From the NCBI GenBank assembly GCA_963704785.1, contig OY969939.1:2383475-2447474 (forward strand): a stretch of 64,000 bases of DNA, in the 5' to 3' direction. The stretch comes from an uncultured Eubacteriales bacterium (GTDB taxonomy: Bacteria; Bacillota; Clostridia; Lutisporales; Lutisporaceae). A program made the translations under genes and the position numbers. Of the stretch, positions 2,282-37,272 are shown piece after piece. The notes below the pieces were generated by a model that had not been told where the DNA came from, searched no databases, and saw only the letters and a program-made list of their open reading frames with translations. Each line of letters opens with the position of its first letter. The stretch's first letter is position 1.

Positions 2282-2869
2282 TTAATGATATATGAAACTT
2301 AATGGACCTCTGAACATTGTATTACTCATTAAGTTTGTTAACTCTTCTGCAGATAACTTCATACCTGTCTCAAGCCAATAAACAATAATCCCAACATTGG
2401 CTGACACGATATATTCAATCAAATAGTCACCATATTCTGCTGACTTATTCTCAACCCTTAAATTATCTAAAAACTTGGTTTTTGCAATGTGTTTAATTTT
2501 TCTTAAAAATGAAGGAGAACCATTTGCACCCAAAAATGCCTTGAAATATTTACTTCTTTCACTAATATATTCTAGACCTTGTACTAAAAAGGGCTTAATG
2601 GTAGTTATATTGCTATTAATTGCGATAAGCTCTTTAATTTTGCTGATATGCTTGTCTAAACCAGAAATTAATTCATCCTCAACTTCATCTAGCAGATCAT
2701 ATATATCTTGATAGTGAATGTAGAAAGTACCTCTGTTTAGACCTGCTTTATCAGTAATTTCTTTTATGCGGATGCTATCAATACTTCTGTTTATATATAA
2801 ATCAATAAATTCATCCTTAATAACTTGTTTGGTATGCACAACCTTAGCTGATTCAAGCTCTATAACCAA
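2282..2869 (-). CDS. TetR/AcrR-family transcriptional regulator
   Basis: 195 aa with an N-terminal HTH (IRIKEITDKAGLNRGTFYIHYQDIYDL). It lies divergent to the activase gene. Confidence 0.75.
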   Translation of the reverse strand: MVIELESAKVVHTKQVIKDEFIDLYINRSIDSIRIKEITDKAGLNRGTFYIHYQDIYDLLDEVEDELISGLDKHISKIKELIAINSNITTIKPFLVQGLEYISERSKYFKAFLGANGSPSFLRKIKHIAKTKFLDNLRVENKSAEYGDYLIEYIVSANVGIIVYWLETGMKLSAEELTNLMSNTMFRGPLSFIYH

Positions 2870-3001
2870 TTATAATCACCTGTTTTCTATCAATTTAATT
2901 TTTAATCTTAAGACTGAAAAACAACTATTTAACAATGAAATCAACAAAAATATAAAAATTGTTCATCTTATTATTATATATTAGTAATATAATTGTAGTA
3001 T

Positions 3002-3022
3002 AAATCAACAAGGTGTTGATTT
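3002..3022. promoter_or_regulatory. Candidate TetR operator
   Basis: Perfect palindrome AAATCAACA-AGG-TGTTGATTT in the divergent intergenic region between tetR and the activase gene. Confidence 0.4.
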
Positions 3023-3088
3023 CAATAATATATTGCACTAAACAATTTATATTTATAAAATAGCATAAAGGTTTTGGGGGTCACAGTA

Positions 3089-6000
3089 ATGGCAAATCTA
3101 TTTCATATTGGGATTGATGTTGGTTCTACAACTGTCAAGGTAGTTGTATTAGACGATAACCTGAAGTTGGTATATAGCAGATACCAAAGACATTTATCCG
3201 ATATAAAAGGAACACTAGAAGAAGTTCTTCTCGAAGCTTATGAGAAATTCAAAGATGATAGAGCAACTATAATAATAACAGGTTCTGGAGGAATGTCCTT
3301 AGCAAAATTTTTGGGAGTTCCTTTCCTTCAAGAAGTTATAGCAGGTACAAAGGCTATACAAACCTACTATCCACAAACTGATGTTGCGATTGAGCTTGGC
3401 GGAGAAGATGCCAAGATTACGTATTTAAATGGCGGTATAGACCAAAGAATGAATGGAACCTGTGCAGGCGGTACAGGCTCTTTTATAGACCAAATGGCAA
3501 CGCTTCTCCAGACTGATGCCATAGGTTTAAATGAACTAGCTAAAAGCTACAAAACAATTTATCCTATTGCTGCAAGATGCGGAGTTTTTGCGAAGACTGA
3601 TATACAGCCATTGCTAAATGAAGGTGCTGCAAAAGAGGATATAGCTGTGTCTGTGCTTCAGGCTGTGGTAATACAGACCATAAGCGGTTTAGCATGTGGA
3701 AGACCTATTAGAGGTAGATGTAGCGTTTTTAGGAGGACCTTTATTCTTTTTATCAGAGCTTAGGAAGAGATTTATTGAGACTTTGAGCTTAAAGAAGGAA
3801 CAGATAATATTTCCAGAGAATTCTCAACTTTATATTGCAATTGGAGCAGCTTTATCATCAGTGGGAAATAAAAATACTGCCTTTAGTGCATTATATAACA
3901 AGCTAAAAGATGTAGATAGTATTTCTCATGGAGAAACAAACAGACTAGCATCACTTTTTAAGATAAAGAGGATTATGAGGAGTTTAAAGCAAGACATAGA
4001 AATCATTCTGTGCCACAAAGAGAGCTTTCAAGCTTTGAAGGCAAATGCTACCTAGGCATAGATGCAGGCTCTACTACTACAAAGGCAGCACTTATTAATG
4101 ATACAGGAGCAATACTTTATACATATTATGGAAGCAATGAAGGAAGTCCGCTTAAATCTACGGTCAGAATTCTAAAAGAGCTTTACAGTATTATGCCACC
4201 CAAGGCAAAGCTAGTGAATTCTACAGTAACAGGTTATGGGGAAGCACTTTTAAAGACTGCGCTTAAAATAGATATTGGAGAGATTGAGACAGTAGCACAC
4301 TATAAGGCGGCTGGATTTTTCTGCCCTGGTGTGGATTTTATATTAGATATTGGCGGACAGGATATGAAATGTCTGAAAATAAAGGATGGCGTAATAGACA
4401 GCATACTTTTAAATGAAGCTTGTTCTTCTGGTTGTGGCTCATTTCTAGAAACCTTTGCCAAATCTCTGAATATAGGTATAGAAGATTTTGCAGAGCAGGC
4501 ATTGTTTGCAGAGAATCCTGTAGATTTTGGCTCGAGATGTACTGTTTTCATGAACTCAAGAGTAAAGCAGGCACAAAAGGAAGGTGCAACTGTAGGTGAA
4601 ATTCAGCAGGGTTATCATATTCCGTAATAAAGAATGCTTTGTTTAAGGTTATAAAAATAAGAAATCCAAAAGAACTGGGAGAAAAGGTTGTTGTACAAGG
4701 TGGAACCTTCTATAATGATGCAGTATTAAGAAGCTTTGAGCTATTATCAGAAAGAGAAGTTATAAGACCTGATATCGCAGGCATTATGGGTGCATTTGGT
4801 GCAGCATTGATTGCCCACGAAAGATATCAAGAAGGCTAATATTACTCAAATATTAAGTGAAGAGCAGTTAAATAATCTAGATGTCCAAACTGGAATGTCA
4901 AGATGTGGACTCTGCGCAAACAACTGTTTACTGACTATTAATAGATTTGGAAACGGTGGGAAGTACGTTTCAGGAAACAGATGTGAAAGAGGAGCAGGGA
5001 TAGATACACAAAAAAATAAGATTCCGAATTTATTTAAATATAAAGTATAAAAGACTTTTTAACTATACACCTTTAGACAATTTGGAAGCAAAAAGAGGAG
5101 TAATAGGGATTCCAAGAGTATTAAATATGTATGAGAATTATCCCTTCTGGTTTACCTTTTTTACAGAGCTAGGCTTTAGAGTGGAGTTGTCTTCTAGATC
5201 CACCAAGAAGATTTATGAAAAGGGAATAGAGACAATACCATCGGAATCGGTATGCTATCCTGCAAAGCTAGTCCATGGGCATATAATGGAGCTTATAGAA
5301 AGGGGCATTGATGTTATTTTTTATCCTTGCATTGCCTATGAGATAAAGGAACAGGAAAAGGCAGACAATCATTATAATTGCCCAATAGTAACATCATATC
5401 CAGAAGTAATAAAGAACAATATGGATGTATTAAGAGAAAAGGATATACTATTTCTTAAGCCATTTTTACCTTTTGATGATAAAAAAAGATTGGCGAAAAG
5501 ATTATTTGAAGAGTTAAAGATATTTAAAATCTCAGAAAGAGAAGTATGTGAAGCTGCAGACAAGGGATGGCAGGAGCAAGAAAGCTTCAAGAGCTATATA
5601 CGAAAGGCAGGAGAAGATACTCTAAAGACAATAAAGGAGTCGGGGATAAAGGGAATAGTGCTTGCTGGAAGACCATATCATATAGATCCTGAGATAAATC
5701 ATGGAATACCAGATATAATTAATGGTCTTGGAATGGCAGTGTTAACAGAGGATTCAATTGCTCATTTAGGTGAAGTAGAAAGACCTCTTAGAGTAGTTGA
5801 TCAATGGATATATCACTCAAGACTATATGCAGCAGCAAGCTTTGTAGCTACACAACAGGATTTGGAGTTGGTACAGTTAAATTCCTTTGGCTGTGGCTTG
5901 GATGCTGTAACAACAGATCAGGTGCAAGAAATATTAAATGGAAATTCTAAGATATATACAACACTAAAAATAGATGAAGGAAATAATCTAGGAGCAGCAA

Positions 6001-7357
6001 GAATAAGACTTCGTTCACTAAAGGCTGCAATTTAAGAAAGAGAGAAGAATGGATTTAAGCATAAGAAGATAGATAATAAATATAAAAGAGTAATATTTAC
6101 AAAGGAAATGAAAAAGAAACATACAATATTGTCTCCTCAGATGTCTCCTATACATTTTGAATTTGTGGAAGAGGCGTTTAAATACTCAGGCTATAACATT
6201 GTTGTACTTCCATCAGTAGACAAAAAAGCAGTAGATGAAGGATTAAAATATGTTAATAATGATGCTTGCTATCCTGCAATAATTGTTATAGGTCAGCTTA
6301 TAGAAGCATTAAAATCTGGAAAATATGATCTTGATAATACTTCTGTAATAATTTCTCAGACAGGTGGAGGATGCAGAGCTACAAATTATATCGGCTTCTT
6401 AAGAAAAGCATTAAAGGATGCAGGATATGAAAAGATACCTGTAATATCCCTAAATGCATTTGGACTGGAGAAAAACCCGGGCTTCAAGCTATCTATGCCA
6501 TTGTTCAATAGAGCATTGATGGCGCTGGTATATGGTGATTTGCTTATGAAGGTTCTGTATAGAGTAAGACCCTATGAAAAAATAAAGGGCTCTGCGAATC
6601 AATTATATAGAAAATGGGCAGAAAAATGTAAAGAAGATTTGCACTCAGCAAACAGAAATGTCTATAAAAGCAATATATGGAACATAGTTAAAGACTTTGA
6701 CGAACTGGAGTTAAAAAATGAGATAAAGCCAAAAGTAGGATTAGTTGGAGAAATATTGGTAAAGTTTCATCCTACTGCCAATAATAATATAGTTGATATT
6801 GTTGAGACTGAAGGAGCAGAAGCAGTAATGCCCGACCTAATTGATTTCTTCCTGTACAGTGCCTATGGTATGATATATAAATATAAATATTTGTCAGGAA
6901 GTAAAACATCAAAAATTATAGCAGAAGCGATAATAGCGGCAATAGAGTTTTATAGGAAAGACTATAAGGAAGCTTTAGCGAAAAGCAAGAGATTCACTTC
7001 ACCAAAGACTATAAAGGAAATAGCCAACGGAGCTTCATCTGTCGTTACTTAGGAAATCAGACGGGAGAAGGCTGGTTTTTGACAGGAGAAATGGTTGAGC
7101 TAATTGAGAGCGGAGTCAAGAATATAGTATGTATGCAGCCCTTTGCATGTCTTCCAAATCATGTAACAGGAAAAGGAATGATGAAGGAATTGAAGAGAAT
7201 ATATCCCGGAACTAATATAGTTGCCATAGATTATGATCCAGGAGCTAGTGAAGTAAATCAATTAAATAGAATAAAGCTTATGATGTCAGCGGCGTTTGAG
7301 AATTTGGATGGGATTAAGGAATTAGAAGCGGAAGCAATAGATGAAAAGCTTGGTTAG
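3089..7357 (+). CDS. Acyl-CoA dehydratase activase-related giant protein (two BcrA/BadF/HgdC ATPase modules plus a dehydratase-like C-terminal region), interrupted
   Basis: Eight collinear ORFs (3074-7357) read through as one protein of about 1420 codons. It has DVGSTTVK and IDAGSTTTK ATPase starts, then [16 protein letters not shown] and a [11 protein letters not shown]-type C-terminal region. There are six frame changes and an in-frame TAA at 6033-6035. Confidence 0.7.
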
Positions 7358-29635: not shown

Positions 29636-29990
29636 ACAGTTATTGGCAATGTATTCACTAAATAAGAAGCCAGGGGCTTTAGCACGTTGCTGATATCCCT
29701 TCTGGGTTGATTTATTATATAAAACAAGTATATTTATCTTACCATCATATTCACCTATATATAGATAGCCTATTCCTTTGTCATCAACAATCCAGGCTTC
29801 GGGATATTTAAAGCTAAAGCCATATTTGCTAAAGTTATAGGTATAATCAGAAGCTTCTTTGTAATCCTCTGTATTGTCAGATACTTTTTTAATATTACTT
29901 GGATTCCACTTGCCCTTTACCACACCCTACAACTAACAATGAAATGGTAAATATTAATATAATTAGTACCACAATCTTTTTATGACTCAA
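29567..29990 (-). pseudogene. Deleted and frameshifted paralog of the 31601-32187 lipoprotein gene
   Basis: TTG start with the signal peptide SHKKIVVLIILIFTISLLVVGC. Relative to unit 2 it has an 11-nt deletion and an internal deletion, and its 3' end runs antisense into the ABC fragment. Confidence 0.6.
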
Positions 29991-30023
29991 TCTATATCCC
30001 ACCTTGTTTTTATAGAACAACAA

Positions 30024-31600: not shown

Positions 31601-32187
31601 TTAATATTTCACACTACCCAAGATGTGCCAAATTTCATTCTTATGCTGTTGGTAGAAATCTTTGTTAACAAATACCACAGCATTCTGATATCCCTTTTGG
31701 GTTGATTTATTATATAAAACAAGTATATTTATCTTACCATCATATTCACCTATATATAGATAGCCTATTCCTTTGTCATCAATAATAAATTCTTTTATCT
31801 TACTAAAATTAGTTGGACTATAGGGACTATAAGAGCCTAAAATAGATATTTTATTTTCTTTATCCCCTTCTATATATACATTTACTCCCCAATCGGGACT
31901 TCCTTCCTTTTTGCTGTAGGCAAATATGATGGAAGTTCATCAACAATCCAGGCTTCGGGATATTTAAAGCTAAAGCCATATTTGCTAAAGCTATAGGTAT
32001 AATCAGAATATCCTTCATAGCCATAGGTATAATCAGAAGCTTCTTTGTAATCCTCTGTATTGTCAGATACTTTTTTAATATTACTTGTATTGCTAGAAGA
32101 TTCCACTTGCCCTTTGCCACACCCTACAACTAACAATAAAATGGTAAATATTAATATAATTAGTACCACAATCTTTTTATGACTCAA
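31601..32187 (-). CDS. Lipoprotein (longer paralog), frame break around 31.91 kb
   Basis: AAGGTGG SD 8 nt before the TTG at 32187 and lipobox LLVVGC. Three reading frames join to give ...FSFKYPEAWIVDE...DWGVNVYIEGDKENK...IGYLYIGEYDGKINILVLYNKSTQKGYQNAVVF...SVKY*. Confidence 0.5.
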
Positions 32188-32220
32188 TCTATATACCACC
32201 TTGTTTTTATAGAACAACAA

Positions 32221-32295
32221 GGTGCTAGGCCCAACAAATAGACAGTTAATAAGAAATATATTGTGAATAACTGTCTAACTGACTAGCCTGGCACC
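32221..32295 (+). repeat. Two-tier hairpin element, copy X3
   Basis: Same as X2 with one or two substitutions. On the minus strand it forms the 5' leader of the 31601-32187 gene. Confidence 0.55.
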
Positions 32296-32861
32296 TATGG
32301 TACGAGCTTTACTGAATCTACAATTTTTTGAATAGTATCTTCCTCTACATATTTTAAGTTAAAATTAAGCAATACAGCTTTTCTATCCTTTTGATTATAG
32401 AAAAAAGCGTGTAAAAGCTCATACTGAATAACTGGCTTGTTGTGTACATTGAAATAACATTTATATTTTTTCCTTAATACAGGACAAAAATAATTATCAA
32501 GAACCTCTGACTCTAACACATCACACATATTTCTAAAAAACAATTCAGGTAAATCATCATGCTGGTAGTCTTCCTCAAAGACATATGCAATATTTTTATC
32601 TTTATAATTCAAAGAAAACCATCCAAAACTACTTTGGGTAAAGTTTAATTCTTTGGGAGCAGAAAACTCTATAAGATGATTTTTATATGTAATCCATTCT
32701 TCATCTTCTGCTATTTTAATGATTTCTGTTTCTATTTCTTCTTTTGTTGCTTTATTATTATCAACATTTGGTGTGTTGGTATTTACTACTTCATTAGAAT
32801 TGTTACAGGATGTAAATAGAAGAATTAAAATAAAACACATTATACATATATATTTTTTCAT
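32295..32861 (-). CDS. Lipoprotein, unknown function
   Basis: 188 aa, lipobox LLFTSC, AAGGAGAAA SD. Confidence 0.55.
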   Translation of the reverse strand: MKKYICIMCFILILLFTSCNNSNEVVNTNTPNVDNNKATKEEIETEIIKIAEDEEWITYKNHLIEFSAPKELNFTQSSFGWFSLNYKDKNIAYVFEEDYQHDDLPELFFRNMCDVLESEVLDNYFCPVLRKKYKCYFNVHNKPVIQYELLHAFFYNQKDRKAVLLNFNLKYVEEDTIQKIVDSVKLVP

Positions 32862-33127: not shown

Positions 33128-33168
33128 CAAAAAAAATCCTTGGATAGAGCTACATCTATCCAAGGATT
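33128..33168 (-). terminator. Rho-independent terminator of the 55-aa gene
   Basis: 13-bp stem AATCCTTGGATAG/CTATCCAAGGATT followed on the minus strand by T8. Confidence 0.7.
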
Positions 33169-33186
33169 TTCAATCTTTATCAGTAG

Positions 33187-33354
33187 TTAATTATATGCCT
33201 CGATTTCAGGTAATGCCTTGTCTATGACTACAAGTTTATAAACTTGTGCAATTAACTCATGTACTATTTCAGGATCGACTCCCAGTTTTTCTGCTTTTCT
33301 ATACACTGAGTCAAACTTACTAATAAAATCTTCCATGTATTCTTTATTAAACAT
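33187..33354 (-). CDS. 55-aa helical protein, unknown function
   Basis: Not in the ORF track. A strong SD (AAGGAGA) lies 6 nt before the ATG at 33354 and the gene has its own terminator. Sequence: MFNKEYMEDFISKFDSVYRKAEKLGVDPEIVHELIAQVYKLVVIDKALPEIEAYN. Confidence 0.55.
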   Translation of the reverse strand: MFNKEYMEDFISKFDSVYRKAEKLGVDPEIVHELIAQVYKLVVIDKALPEIEAYN

Positions 33355-33765
33355 TGTATATCTCCTTTCCTTGTTAAAGTTCTTAAAAGAAGTTTATAAT
33401 CTCAAGAAAAGTGATATATGAATAGGTTTATTTTCTGCAATGTATAACCTATTTCGCTTGGTAGGAGTTGGAGAAATCCGGCTCTTTCACTTTTCTGTTT
33501 AATATAATTTGCTTTCCCTCCTTTCAATGAATTATGTAATGTATTGTTACATTGTGTTTACTTTGTAATTTTAACAAATTTTCTCATACTTGTAAAGTTG
33601 ACAGGTTTCCATTATATGTAATCTGTTGTGTGGTGGCGTGAATAAATATTTATAATTAATAATATTTAATTGATACAAGTTATATTTTGTTATAAATTTA
33701 CGTTTTTTAAAGGACATCGCCTATAAATTTCATAATTTTTCCATAACTTATTTTAAAATTCCCTA

Positions 33766-33794
33766 CAAAAAAAACAGAAAGCATAAAGCCTTCT
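33766..33794 (-). terminator. Terminator after the pro-peptide gene
   Basis: Minus strand AGAAGGC-TTTAT-GCTTTCT followed by GTTTTTTTT. Confidence 0.55.
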
Positions 33795-33808
33795 ATTAGG
33801 TGATGGGT

Positions 33809-33955
33809 TTACTTATTTATTGGATTTATCATGCATGAATGGTATGGATCGCTACCATCTTGTGCATTTACTTCTGTCGGAATTACTACCGATATAGTAA
33901 CTGCAAATAAAATTGCTATTATAAAATATTTTGTTATTGTTTTAAACTTATTCAT
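33809..33955 (-). CDS. 48-aa secreted pro-peptide (candidate signalling peptide)
   Basis: Not in the ORF track. Its ATG overlaps the regulator's stop (ATGAATAA). Sequence is MNKFKTITKYFIIAILFAVTISVVIPTEVNA|QDGSDPYHSCMINPINK, a Sec-type signal followed by a 17-aa tail. Confidence 0.6.
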   Translation of the reverse strand: MNKFKTITKYFIIAILFAVTISVVIPTEVNAQDGSDPYHSCMINPINK

Positions 33956-35222
33956 TATATGCCTCCTTTTTTCTTATTTTTCTATGTATTCTTCCTATAC
34001 ATGAGTACAAATCATCTTTATATACATAATTATCTGTGTTCTCTTCTATGTAACAAACCACATTGTACAATTCTTTTAATAAGTCAACATCATATATATA
34101 GTTAGTTATATTAATTATTCCATCCTTCATATCTTTTTTATCAATAGAAGTATAAATTGTTTTCTTTAGCATACTAAAATATTCATAGCAGGCAGAGGTA
34201 TCTCCTGCCATTAATCTTATCTCCGCATGGGTTTGAGCGACTATTAAATGTCTCTCAGTAATTCTATCCTTATCTAATAGCTCCATTGCTGCTTCGATGT
34301 ATTTAATCGCTTCGTCATAATTCTTAAAAATGCAATATATGTCAGCAATATTATTAAGAGTTAATGACCTACCATTTATATCTTTTTCGTGGAATTCAAG
34401 CAAAGCCATTAAGTAGTATTCTTTTGCTTCTGCATACATTCCATCTCTTTTATATGTAGACCCTATAGCCAAATATGCCGCACCTTTATCACTATTTAAT
34501 TCAGTATTATCACCTGCATACACAATTGACTTCTCTATGTAGCCTCTTGCCTCAGAGTGCCTGCCCACTTCTGAATTTAACATTATACCTCTTCTATAAT
34601 AGTATTTATACAAGGCTGAATTACTAACCTTCTCAGATTTATCAATGTAATTCTGAGCTTTTATAAATAATCTTTCTGCCTCTTTAACTTCTCTCTCCAT
34701 ATAATGATATTCTGCCAATTCAACCGTTATAATTATTAATGTATCAATATTTTCCATATCAACTAGATTTAAGGCTTCATTATAATATTCTAAGGTTTTA
34801 ATAATATCATTTCTATAGTAAAAGTGTTTTCCAAGGCATCTTATCATTAAAGCAGTTTCGTTTATAAGTCCAAACTTAACACACAATGCTCTTACTTTTT
34901 CCAGCAAAGCATAGTCCTTATCTTCTTTATAGAGCATTATATCTCTATAAATTTTAATTGCAAAATTTTTGATTTGTCCAGCATCATCACATATTAGCTC
35001 GTCCCAGCCTTCATCAAGAGTTCTAAGCATTATGCATTTAAAGGTTGGTGAAGAAATTTTATTAAAACCACAGTAATTTCTCACAGCCTTGAGAGATAAT
35101 TCAGTTATCTTTTCTGTTTCATAAAAATCTTTTATAGAACCATACTTTTCTTCAATTTTCTTTTTTATTTGTTGCCCCTCATTTAAAAATTCTATGTCTT
35201 CTGGCATTAACTTTTTTCCCAT
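33948..35222 (-). CDS. TPR-repeat regulator with a degenerate N-terminal HTH (RRNPP-like)
   Basis: 424 aa. The N-terminus GQQIKKKIEEKYGSIKDFYETEKITELSLKAVRNYCGF is XRE-HTH-like. At least 5 TPR-like repeats follow (e.g. AYLAIGSTYKRDGMYAEAKEYYLMAL, LNNIADIYCIFKNYDEAIKYIEAAM). Confidence 0.6.
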   Translation of the reverse strand: MGKKLMPEDIEFLNEGQQIKKKIEEKYGSIKDFYETEKITELSLKAVRNYCGFNKISSPTFKCIMLRTLDEGWDELICDDAGQIKNFAIKIYRDIMLYKEDKDYALLEKVRALCVKFGLINETALMIRCLGKHFYYRNDIIKTLEYYNEALNLVDMENIDTLIIITVELAEYHYMEREVKEAERLFIKAQNYIDKSEKVSNSALYKYYYRRGIMLNSEVGRHSEARGYIEKSIVYAGDNTELNSDKGAAYLAIGSTYKRDGMYAEAKEYYLMALLEFHEKDINGRSLTLNNIADIYCIFKNYDEAIKYIEAAMELLDKDRITERHLIVAQTHAEIRLMAGDTSACYEYFSMLKKTIYTSIDKKDMKDGIINITNYIYDVDLLKELYNVVCYIEENTDNYVYKDDLYSCIGRIHRKIRKKEAYNE

Positions 35223-36732: not shown

Positions 36733-37272
36733 ATGAGAAAGATAATCAACAGTATTTTCAACTTAATAGTAATTTTTATTATAGTATTTTCATCGTTATA
36801 TTTAATATCAGCAGCTCAAACTATCAGTAACCCTACCAACATACCCTCAATATTGGGCTTTACCCCTCTTACCGTAATATCAGGGAGCATGAGCCCGGGT
36901 ATAGAAACTGGAGATATGGTTGTGATAAAAAAGAACATCGACAATATAAATCCGGGGGATATCATAACATATAGGCTGGATGATATACTGGTTACCCATA
37001 GGGTAAAGGAAATTTCTAAGGATGATATAAAAGAGGTGTTTGTTACTCAAGGTGATGCAAATAGTGTGTCAGATTATAAAACAGTAGATCGAAGCCAGAT
37101 AGTGGGTAAATACTTATTTAGAATTCCGTTAGGTGGGTATATTAAGGCAAGCTTAAGAGGAATGGCAGGTATATTGATTTTATTGGGATTGATTCTTATA
37201 GCACTCATGCTTGAAGTGCTTAAGTTTACTAATAACAAGCTGAAGGAAGTTGAAAAATGTTTATTAGAATAG
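36733..37272 (+). CDS. sipW: Signal peptidase I, SipW (archaeal/ER) type
   Basis: 179 aa with VISGSMSPGIETGDMVVIKK, THRV and TQGDAN motifs, plus a C-terminal TM helix. Confidence 0.8.
   Translation: MRKIINSIFNLIVIFIIVFSSLYLISAAQTISNPTNIPSILGFTPLTVISGSMSPGIETGDMVVIKKNIDNINPGDIITYRLDDILVTHRVKEISKDDIKEVFVTQGDANSVSDYKTVDRSQIVGKYLFRIPLGGYIKASLRGMAGILILLGLILIALMLEVLKFTNNKLKEVEKCLLE

Follow-up and report, generated by a model that had tools for sequence, protein, structure and literature searches.

Our analysis of a 64,000-nucleotide stretch of DNA from an uncultured Eubacteriales bacterium of the family Lutisporaceae (contig OY969939.1 of assembly GCA_963704785.1, positions 2,383,475 to 2,447,474; hereafter the window, whose own numbering we use for its features) indicates that three open reading frames (ORFs) on its minus strand, between 33187 and 35222, probably form a chromosomal peptide quorum-sensing cassette of the RRNPP type. 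The cassette is built around a previously uncharacterised receptor family that has so far been met only in Lutisporaceae and related uncultured Clostridia, and we put the probability of this reading at roughly 70%. In Firmicutes, systems of this type govern sporulation, solvent production, virulence, competence and phage lysogeny, and to our knowledge almost everything understood of their mechanism comes from Bacilli, streptococci and two solventogenic clostridia. The three genes encode a 424-aa receptor (33948-35222), a 48-aa pro-peptide (33809-33955) and, beyond a gap of 454 nt (33355-33808), a 55-aa protein (33187-33354) that we call the output gene. These frames come from the ORF listing and from direct reading of the window, which bears out the ORFs, the overlap, the terminators and the spacing that a first-pass annotation of this DNA had described.

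The receptor frame ends in KEAYNE and a TAA stop (33950-33948), and the pro-peptide gene, whose ATG lies at 33955-33953, overlaps that stop by 8 nt: ATGAATAA. The pro-peptide's Shine-Dalgarno (SD) sequence, GGAGG (33962-33966), sits within the receptor's final codons, 6 nt from the ATG, and the hairpin scan places a terminator-like hairpin with a T-run directly after the pair (33773-33797). In alignment A2, which covers eight close cassettes, the hairpin and T-run stand at the same place after the pro-peptide gene in all 8 loci. From the overlap, the internal SD and the hairpin behind the pair we infer that the two genes are read as a single transcript and are translationally coupled. The RRNPP_detector signature consists of a receptor of 250-500 aa with tetratricopeptide repeats (TPRs) and an adjacent Sec-tagged ORF of 10-100 aa, and systems of this kind are widely predicted in Clostridia (PMC10075063). 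Here we find a 424-aa TPR receptor and an adjacent 48-aa ORF with a ribosome-binding site and, by rules, a signal for Sec and signal peptidase I. By this signature the cassette is a predicted RRNPP system, and the receptor/pro-peptide arrangement that the first-pass annotation had recognised proves to be kept in 20 of 21 loci, as a same-strand ORF that follows or overlaps the receptor stop.

That conservation matters because short ORFs are abundant in this AT-rich stretch, many of them 25-57 aa long, so that a 48-codon ORF on its own would not be significant. Close homologues of the receptor are few, 18 among 5.8 billion clustered proteins, while a profile search of 1.84 billion representatives returned about 100 full-length family members (50% clustering) of about 415 aa. 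The named loci of the family belong to Lutisporaceae and other uncultured Clostridia, and the remaining members lie on metagenome contigs without taxonomic labels. Several paralogous cassettes can share one genome: at least five occur in OW818645.1, a 4.19-Mb chromosome, four in one Lutisporaceae metagenome-assembled genome, and the genome of the window itself (3.75 Mb) has at least two. For P0004, the paralog from that same genome, an exact look-up gave no record, and a protein-based scan of metagenome contigs gave no relatives. We compared 21 cassettes in all (the window, L001-L011 and L013-L021). In 20 of them an ORF of 43-53 aa overlaps the receptor stop or starts within a few bases after it; L015 is an orphan receptor without an adjoining pro-peptide ORF. 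The receptors that stand beside such an ORF range from 97% identical to distant relatives reached only by the family profile. Conservation of the short ORF beside homologous TPR genes had been set in advance as the point on which the reading would turn, and it is this conservation at the same place that marks the 48-aa ORF as real. One could still suppose that both small ORFs are chance frames and that the TPR gene alone is real, given that many ORFs of this size arise by chance in the region and that neither small ORF matches any family library. However, the 48-aa ORF keeps its position, architecture and motif at those 20 loci, the 55-aa ORF has homologues of 34-46% identity in the same position, and both have a strong SD, and we regard this supposition as effectively refuted by conservation.

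The 48-aa product reads MNKFKTITKYFIIAILFAVTISVVIPTEVNA up to the predicted cleavage site and QDGSDPYHSCMINPINK after it. The first-pass annotation had seen a Sec-type signal peptide here, and judged by rules (the n/h/c pattern and the -3/-1 rule) together with conservation, this stands up well: residues 1-31 (33863-33955) form a predicted signal peptide with a signal peptidase I cut predicted after VNA, which leaves an exported part of 17 aa, QDGSDP followed by YHSCMINPINK (33812-33862). Every one of the 20 pro-peptides has the Sec-type n/h/c layout and Ala at -1. Their n-regions carry a charge of +2 to +4 and their h-regions span 13-26 residues with a mean Kyte-Doolittle hydropathy of 1.7-2.7; the -3 residue is V, I, L or S, with Val in 16 of the 20. 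After the cleavage site comes a conserved acidic segment, [AGQF][DE]xx[DE]P, followed by Tyr in 18/20, and then a variable tail of 5-20 residues with no conserved Trp. This tail diverges much faster than either the signal peptide or the receptor. L008 and L010, for instance, have receptors 81% identical and tails only 36% identical, and between the window and L003 the figures are 72% and 18%. Such hypervariability relative to the receptor is the behaviour expected of an RRNPP pro-peptide. Receptor identity and tail identity are correlated (Spearman 0.38, Mantel p about 0.004), a correlation that linkage and shared ancestry alone could yield. As a side observation, L007 carries tandem pro-peptide genes behind one receptor (5250-5399 and 5440-5589, with tails YPQSIINPTYNL and YRKNVVNPTYNL), which resemble the aloP10 alpha/beta pair named in PMC7425212.

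Might the secreted product be something other than a signal? One might think of an effector, either membrane-anchored or secreted, of a bacteriocin-like peptide, or of the precursor of a ribosomally synthesised and post-translationally modified peptide, with the TPR protein serving as its regulator, chaperone or immunity factor. Several tails do contain Cys and, at 10-20 aa, are longer than the classical RRNPP signals of 5-7 aa, and the hydrophobic region of 22-26 residues found in a few homologues could anchor in the membrane. Yet no modification enzyme, transporter or immunity gene lies beside the pair in any of the 21 loci, the invariant Ala at -1 argues for cleavage, and RRNPP systems typically show this combination of multiple paralogs, hypervariable tails and cytoplasmic TPR receptors encoded alongside (PMC7425212, PMC7376267). 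We therefore consider a non-signalling product improbable and continue to read the 48-aa ORF as a signal precursor.

Within the 424-aa receptor Pfam recognises TPR families only, over residues ~128-342 and with TPR_12, TPR_2 and TPR_8 above cut-offs, and NCBIfam likewise sees nothing beyond TPR repeats. The N-terminus is hydrophilic and without a signal peptide, indicating a cytoplasmic protein. An AlphaFold2 model built from an 18-sequence alignment (pLDDT 92.5, pTM 0.82) is all-alpha with 22 helices, in which an N-terminal five-helix domain (residues ~1-78; helices 15-27, 30-37, 44-50, 59-69 and 73-76) leads into a continuous TPR-like superhelix (~80-424). In size, in Pfam TPR content and in its modelled all-alpha superhelix the receptor fits the RRNPP signature, as had been claimed for it. 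The N-terminal domain (residues 1-78, encoded at 34989-35222), a putative DNA-binding helix-turn-helix (HTH), is one of the best conserved regions of the protein, with dense invariant columns from K4 to W73 in alignment A1. We also modelled the N-terminal 98 residues separately (pLDDT 87) and compared this model with the PDB by Foldseek. Its neighbours are almost all HTH proteins of the XRE type, namely ImmR, SinR, BldD, lambda cI, TP901-1 CI, C.Esp1396I and HigA, and they include the RRNPP members Rgg2 (4yv9) and ComR (5jub), with TM-scores by target of 0.5-0.69 and a root-mean-square deviation of ~2.7 A over 66 residues. The degenerate XRE-like HTH that the first-pass annotation had read into this region is thus supported at the level of fold only; at the level of sequence it is not, as discussed below. 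The comparison with RRNPP receptor structures that it had suggested splits in a similar way: the N-terminal domain lies near Rgg2 and ComR, while the full-length protein is no closer to RRNPP receptors than to generic TPR proteins.

The gap between the two small genes had been described as about 450 bp of non-coding DNA. Its length stands, but it is not inert, for it holds a conserved promoter and a structured RNA leader. In alignment A2 the eight close cassettes have in common a conserved block of ~230 nt that starts exactly at a sigma-70-type promoter, TTTACA-17 nt-TG-n-TAAAAT (33568-33596; 10/12 matches, with the TG), and upstream of its -35 element that alignment shows no conservation. The same promoter arrangement recurs in L018, L020 and L021. 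Just inside the transcript a near-perfect palindrome, ATGTAAC-N5-RTTACAT (ATTACAT in the window, 33534-33552), spans about +10 to +28. At up to 2 mismatches it is the sole copy per locus, at a constant position, in the window, L001, L002, L004, L008 and L010; L005 and L007 have weaker versions at the same place, and L018 and L020 a covarying one, TGTAAT-N5-ATTACA. The distant loci L014 and L021 lack the palindrome, and no second copy, which would suggest autoregulation, was found upstream of the receptor. The palindrome could equally be a candidate receptor operator or a stabilising hairpin at the 5' end of the RNA. Cassettes with receptors of only 46-52% identity still have the promoter, the palindrome and the RNA in common. 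Another short motif, GACAAATAWCGAC-like, is conserved in L004, L005, L007, L008, L010 and L020 (alignment A2, columns ~116-132), ~50-70 nt past the pro-peptide terminator and ~150 nt before the leader promoter; the window, L001 and L002 do not have it. It could be an alternative or additional operator.

Downstream of the palindrome the transcript is predicted to fold into a three-way junction (33400-33502; 102.7 bits with our covariance model R1), closed by P1 (AGAAAAGUGA with UCACUUUUCU) and carrying P2 (GAGCCGGA, a loop and UCCAACUC) and P3 (AAUAGGUU with AACCUAUU). In alignment A6, of 11 sequences, 89.9% of the cells are paired, against 35-54% in slid controls; seven pairs change on both sides, and none of 500 shuffles reached the observed covariation score. 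R1 finds the leader in 13 of the 21 cassettes (the window, L001, L002, L004, L005, L007, L008, L010, L014, L017, L018, L020 and L021). The L014 leader is recovered at E 1.3e-10 even though it lies outside the training set of R1 and belongs to a distantly related receptor, and L014 and L017 retain all three helices despite largely different sequences. A coding function of the leader is excluded, since loci differ by 2-nt indels. These indels break the frame, with no conserved pattern of starts and stops, and on these grounds we rejected both a 41-aa ORF within the leader (33402-33527) and a short leader peptide behind an upstream AAGGAGG. That SD-like AAGGAGG (33505-33530 in the window) is itself strongly conserved, at the equivalent site in all leaders, 25-35 nt before P1, where it might act as a standby site for ribosomes or as one more partner for alternative pairing. 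Among the loci examined, the leader is met only within the quorum-sensing cassette. Rfam 15 does not match it at E-values up to 1 for the window and up to 0.5 for six other loci; weak matches to mir-2558, rteR and NsiR1 (E 0.1-0.7) were dismissed as terminator or AT-rich hairpins. A scan of JGI metagenome contigs with the RNA pattern gave no matches. At L005 (~6470-6870) and L006 (~1975-2260) we also noticed a conserved antisense "ORF" upstream of a gene that we take, from its N-terminal sequence, to encode a seryl-tRNA synthetase-like protein; the "ORF" probably marks a T-box-type leader.

How could such a leader act on the gene behind it? The expression platform (33355-33414), as it emerges from the minimum free energy fold of the window and from RNAduplex, offers an alternative pairing: instead of closing P1, the 3' strand of P1 (UAUAUCACUUUUCUUG, ~33401-33416) can pair with the SD region of the 55-aa ORF (CAAGGAAAGGAGAUAUA, 33357-33373), and this is the pairing that appears in the minimum free energy fold. 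The energy of the anti-SD duplex is -15.3 kcal/mol in the window and between -11 and -17 in all 11 leaders, a value reached by at most 4% of shuffles in each of them, and the flanks of the helix covary (CUUG/CAAG, CCUG/CAGG, CCAU/AUGG). With P1 and the anti-SD helix as alternatives, the leader looks like the predicted anatomy of a riboswitch-like translational RNA switch. Like translational riboswitches with a three-way junction (the purine class, for example), it has a closing P1 that shares its 3' strand with the SD-sequestering helix; unlike them, it finds no match in Rfam 15 even at permissive E-values. We tentatively suggest, as a possibility that we think rather less likely to be right than wrong, that the leader belongs to a new riboswitch-like class integral to a peptide quorum-sensing cassette, whose output would be controlled at two levels: the peptide-responsive receptor would act on transcription, and an RNA sensing a second input would act on translation. 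If so, that input might be a metabolite or a protein, perhaps even the cassette's own receptor or peptide, and the dual gating would amount to an AND gate of cell density and physiological state. We know of no such gate among RRNPP systems.

The output gene itself has GGAG 7 nt before its ATG, and its transcript ends in a bidirectional terminator hairpin of 17 bp (33132-33171), as the claim of a strong SD and a terminator of its own would have it. The 55-aa protein is small and helical, of the form helix - G[IV]DP - helix. Homologues of 45-55 aa occupy the same position in seven loci (the window, L001, L002, L004, L008, L017 and L021), and L020 carries a decayed, frame-shifted copy, so that the order of regulator, peptide and small gene noted in the first pass is both real and recurrent. 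Between the paralogous cassettes of L002 and the window the output module is 98% identical, compared with 85% for the receptors and 70% for the peptides, the pattern expected if signals become distinct in specificity while the output stays common to them. The 55-aa protein matches no family in Pfam, NCBIfam or PHROG. A Spo0E-like identity was rejected, as six members gave no PF09388 match at E-values up to 10; in alignment A8, moreover, no acidic residue is conserved at the place that would correspond to the one in the Spo0E motif. PDB profile matches to designer PPR proteins were dismissed as reflecting a single repeat-like helical hairpin motif. Other cassettes carry other genes at this point. 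In one subclade the addition is a peptidase: in L007 (6090-7910) the leader is followed by an M3 oligoendopeptidase (606 aa, Peptidase_M3, PepF-like), the same peptidase lies downstream of the small ORF in L008 (~2397-4217) and L020 (2242-4062), a GNAT acetyltransferase replaces the output gene in L005, and L016 and L018 have different small ORFs. In B. subtilis, overproduced PepF interferes with sporulation signalling that depends on Phr, and a peptidase under quorum-sensing control could give feedback on the signal.

A number of our results weigh against the reading of this locus as a quorum-sensing cassette whose receptor binds DNA and governs the adjacent transcript. The Foldseek E-values of the N-terminal domain are weak (0.8-5) and its net charge, counted from the sequence, is about -1, so that DNA binding by the putative HTH in the model, though likely, is not secure. 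Pfam, at E-values up to 10, finds no HTH in the N-terminal 100 aa of the receptor or in nine distant family members; a PDB profile search with the N-domain alignment finds none either; and hhalign of this domain against genuine HTH_3 neighbours gives a probability of 0.05, that is, no signal. Searches with the whole receptor, by fold (PDB, BFVD) and by profile, are dominated by generic TPR proteins. In phmmer and profile searches of the PDB designed TPRs and LGN come out on top, with RapJ reaching only E 0.0034, and in full-length Foldseek the Rap proteins (3q15, 4i1a, 4gyo, 8rte, 8rsu) rank only 35-45, with TM-scores of ~0.47-0.50. Cleavage by signal peptidase I is a prediction from rules and conservation, and the palindrome would also be kept if it were merely a 5' hairpin of the RNA. 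The leader RNA is absent from 8/21 cassettes. Finally, L019 (JGI contig Ga0308317_1093855, 4415-7275) is a syntenic ortholog: it shares the upstream genes and the exact peptide tail with the window's cassette, its receptor is 90% identical, and it has neither the leader nor the 55-aa gene. The lack of the module in L019 and of the RNA in those eight cassettes means that the output module is dispensable or replaceable. In L019 its place is taken by opposite-strand genes with MauJ-like and TIR domains, maybe a defence-island insertion.

Much of this would be accommodated if the receptor were Rap-like. Such a receptor would not bind DNA; it would sequester or dephosphorylate another protein, for example a response regulator or a component of the Spo0A pathway, with the peptide relieving this action, and the output module would be a frequent neighbour outside its direct control. 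The undetectability of the HTH by sequence fits this picture, as do the recovery of Rap proteins as the only RRNPP receptors in full-length fold and profile searches, the retention of receptor and peptide without the module in L019, and the lack of conservation upstream of the output promoter's -35. On the other hand, the N-terminal domain is modelled with five to six helices and has nearly exclusively XRE HTH neighbours in the PDB, not the three-helix bundle of Rap; conservation within the family is among the highest in this domain, as in Qsr regulators (PMC7376267); and the output module accompanies the pair in 13 of the 21 loci and, in close relatives, always lies ~240-280 nt past the peptide gene. 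On balance a Rap-like receptor seems unlikely to us, though less so than a non-signalling product of the 48-aa ORF, and we retain the XRE-like receptor as the preferred reading. Since generic TPR proteins dominate the full-length searches, and AimR is absent from the receptor's fold neighbours in a viral structure library, there is no specific homology to Rap, NprR, PlcR, PrgX, Rgg, ComR or AimR beyond the generic TPR. The receptor is thus a new, previously uncharacterised family, set apart from Qsr by the latter's published description. One consequence is that tools based on HTH profile models would not mark it as a transcription factor, since its HTH is not recognisable by sequence.

Several known systems help to place the cassette. 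One that is close in layout is Alo of Paenibacillus polymyxa, where an HTH-TPR receptor is likewise followed on the same strand by a Sec-tagged pro-peptide of 32-50 aa and where many paralogous pairs occur per genome (PMC7425212). In AloR13-AloP13-spo0E-like, direct control of the downstream gene was shown experimentally (PMC7425212), and a small gene immediately downstream as the direct regulatory output is what we propose here. The two systems nevertheless have no detectable sequence relationship, and they differ in that the HTH here is unrecognisable by sequence, the output is not Spo0E-like and stands behind a structured RNA leader, absent from the description in PMC7425212, and the host is an anaerobic Clostridia lineage. 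Within Clostridia, the Qsr-Qsp systems of Clostridium acetobutylicum (PMC7376267) and QssR-QssP of C. saccharoperbutylacetonicum (PMC7206700) resemble the cassette in having multiple paralogs, a most conserved N-terminal region, several TPRs and a pro-peptide directly downstream. Going by the description in PMC7376267 and not by the sequences, Qsr differs in having a sequence-detectable Xre HTH, and Qsp peptides share Leu, Pro and Trp near the C-terminus, whereas here the conserved element is [DE]xx[DE]P-Y by the cleavage site, with no conserved Trp. Neither PMC7376267 nor PMC7206700 describes a conserved adjacent output module. The data for QsrB fit a repressor inactivated by its own peptide (PMC7376267), and by analogy the logic of the cassette may possibly be similar.

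The arbitrium system AimR-AimP-AimX of SPbeta-like phages (PMC6458997, PMC9232636) has the same order of receptor, pro-peptide and separately promoted, same-strand small output transcript, and the target of AimR lies downstream of the peptide gene, in the same place as proposed here. The likeness to aimR-aimP-aimX drawn in the first-pass annotation is thus apt, and AloR13-AloP13-spo0E-like shows this order too (PMC7425212). The copy in the window differs from arbitrium in not being phage-borne, in its longer and unrelated peptide tail and in an output that consists of a structured leader and a 55-aa ORF. With Rap-Phr and NprR-NprX of Bacillus the cassette shares a TPR receptor with an adjacent or overlapping gene for a Sec-exported pro-peptide, whereas similarity to Rap is no better than to LGN or consensus TPRs and the N-terminal domain has an XRE-like fold. 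As far as our searches show, the receptor family, the [DE]xx[DE]P-Y element and the conserved RNA-switch leader are undescribed in the literature searched.

The window's copy of the cassette is not phage-borne, and we found no phage link; the first pass, too, had seen no phage genes nearby. Its neighbours are ordinary chromosomal housekeeping genes by Pfam and NCBIfam (an Mntp-family membrane protein, an S24/S26 signal peptidase, a DsrE-like protein, a class-V aminotransferase and lipoproteins), PHROG families give no match for any of the three cassette proteins, and a scan of viral contigs with the RNA pattern gave none either. Three more distant family members have a different setting, next to hallmarks of mobile elements: in L013 these are a gene for Rep3 plasmid replication and a divergent pair of HTH_19 and HTH_3 genes, in L017 a divergent cI/Cro-like pair immediately upstream of the receptor, and in L021 a tyrosine integrase and an S24 peptidase; part of the receptor family may therefore travel on plasmids or prophages. 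The signal peptidase I-like gene of the window (Peptidase_S24/S26; 36733-37272, plus strand) is encoded opposite to the receptor, 1.5 kb upstream of it. Its synteny is retained in L019, which may be a coincidence, yet the enzyme is a candidate for cleaving the pro-peptide. On the other side, a lipoprotein-like ORF (32295-32861) lies directly downstream of the cassette. Two further small lipoprotein-like genes, 31882-32220 and ~29780-30023 (both minus strand), are paralogs with a PsbP_2-like region, 95% identical over the first 41 residues and 69% over the next 59.

Taken as a mechanism, the preferred reading would run as follows. Sec would export the 48-aa product, signal peptidase I would cleave it behind VNA(31), and the conserved acidic [DE]xx[DE]P-Y segment would serve as a handle during processing outside the cell. 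The hypervariable C-terminal tail would give rise to a peptide, lying within YHSCMINPINK, that builds up with cell density, is re-imported, presumably via an Opp permease, and binds the concave face of the receptor's TPR superhelix, altering the activity of the receptor's N-terminal XRE-like domain. The analogy with AloR13/spo0E-like and AimR/aimX makes the adjacent output transcript, which has its own promoter, the most probable direct target. We favour a receptor that represses this transcript as a roadblock, with the peptide toggling its binding, because the only conserved DNA besides the promoter is the palindrome at about +10 to +28, although the direction of regulation is not readable from sequence. 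As a second layer, P1 of the three-way junction would compete with the helix that sequesters the SD of the 55-aa gene, and the 55-aa helical protein would be the effector.

The quorum-sensing pair is in itself of moderate interest, and the RNA leader adds to it. Related genomes carry several paralogous "pherotypes", at least some of which share a nearly identical output module. The cassette offers a compact and testable model, with receptor, peptide, candidate operator, predicted RNA switch and a 55-aa putative effector all within 2 kb. If the leader is a true RNA switch, it would give this superfamily a first case in which a structured RNA gates the quorum-sensing output, and at the same time be a new orphan riboswitch candidate.

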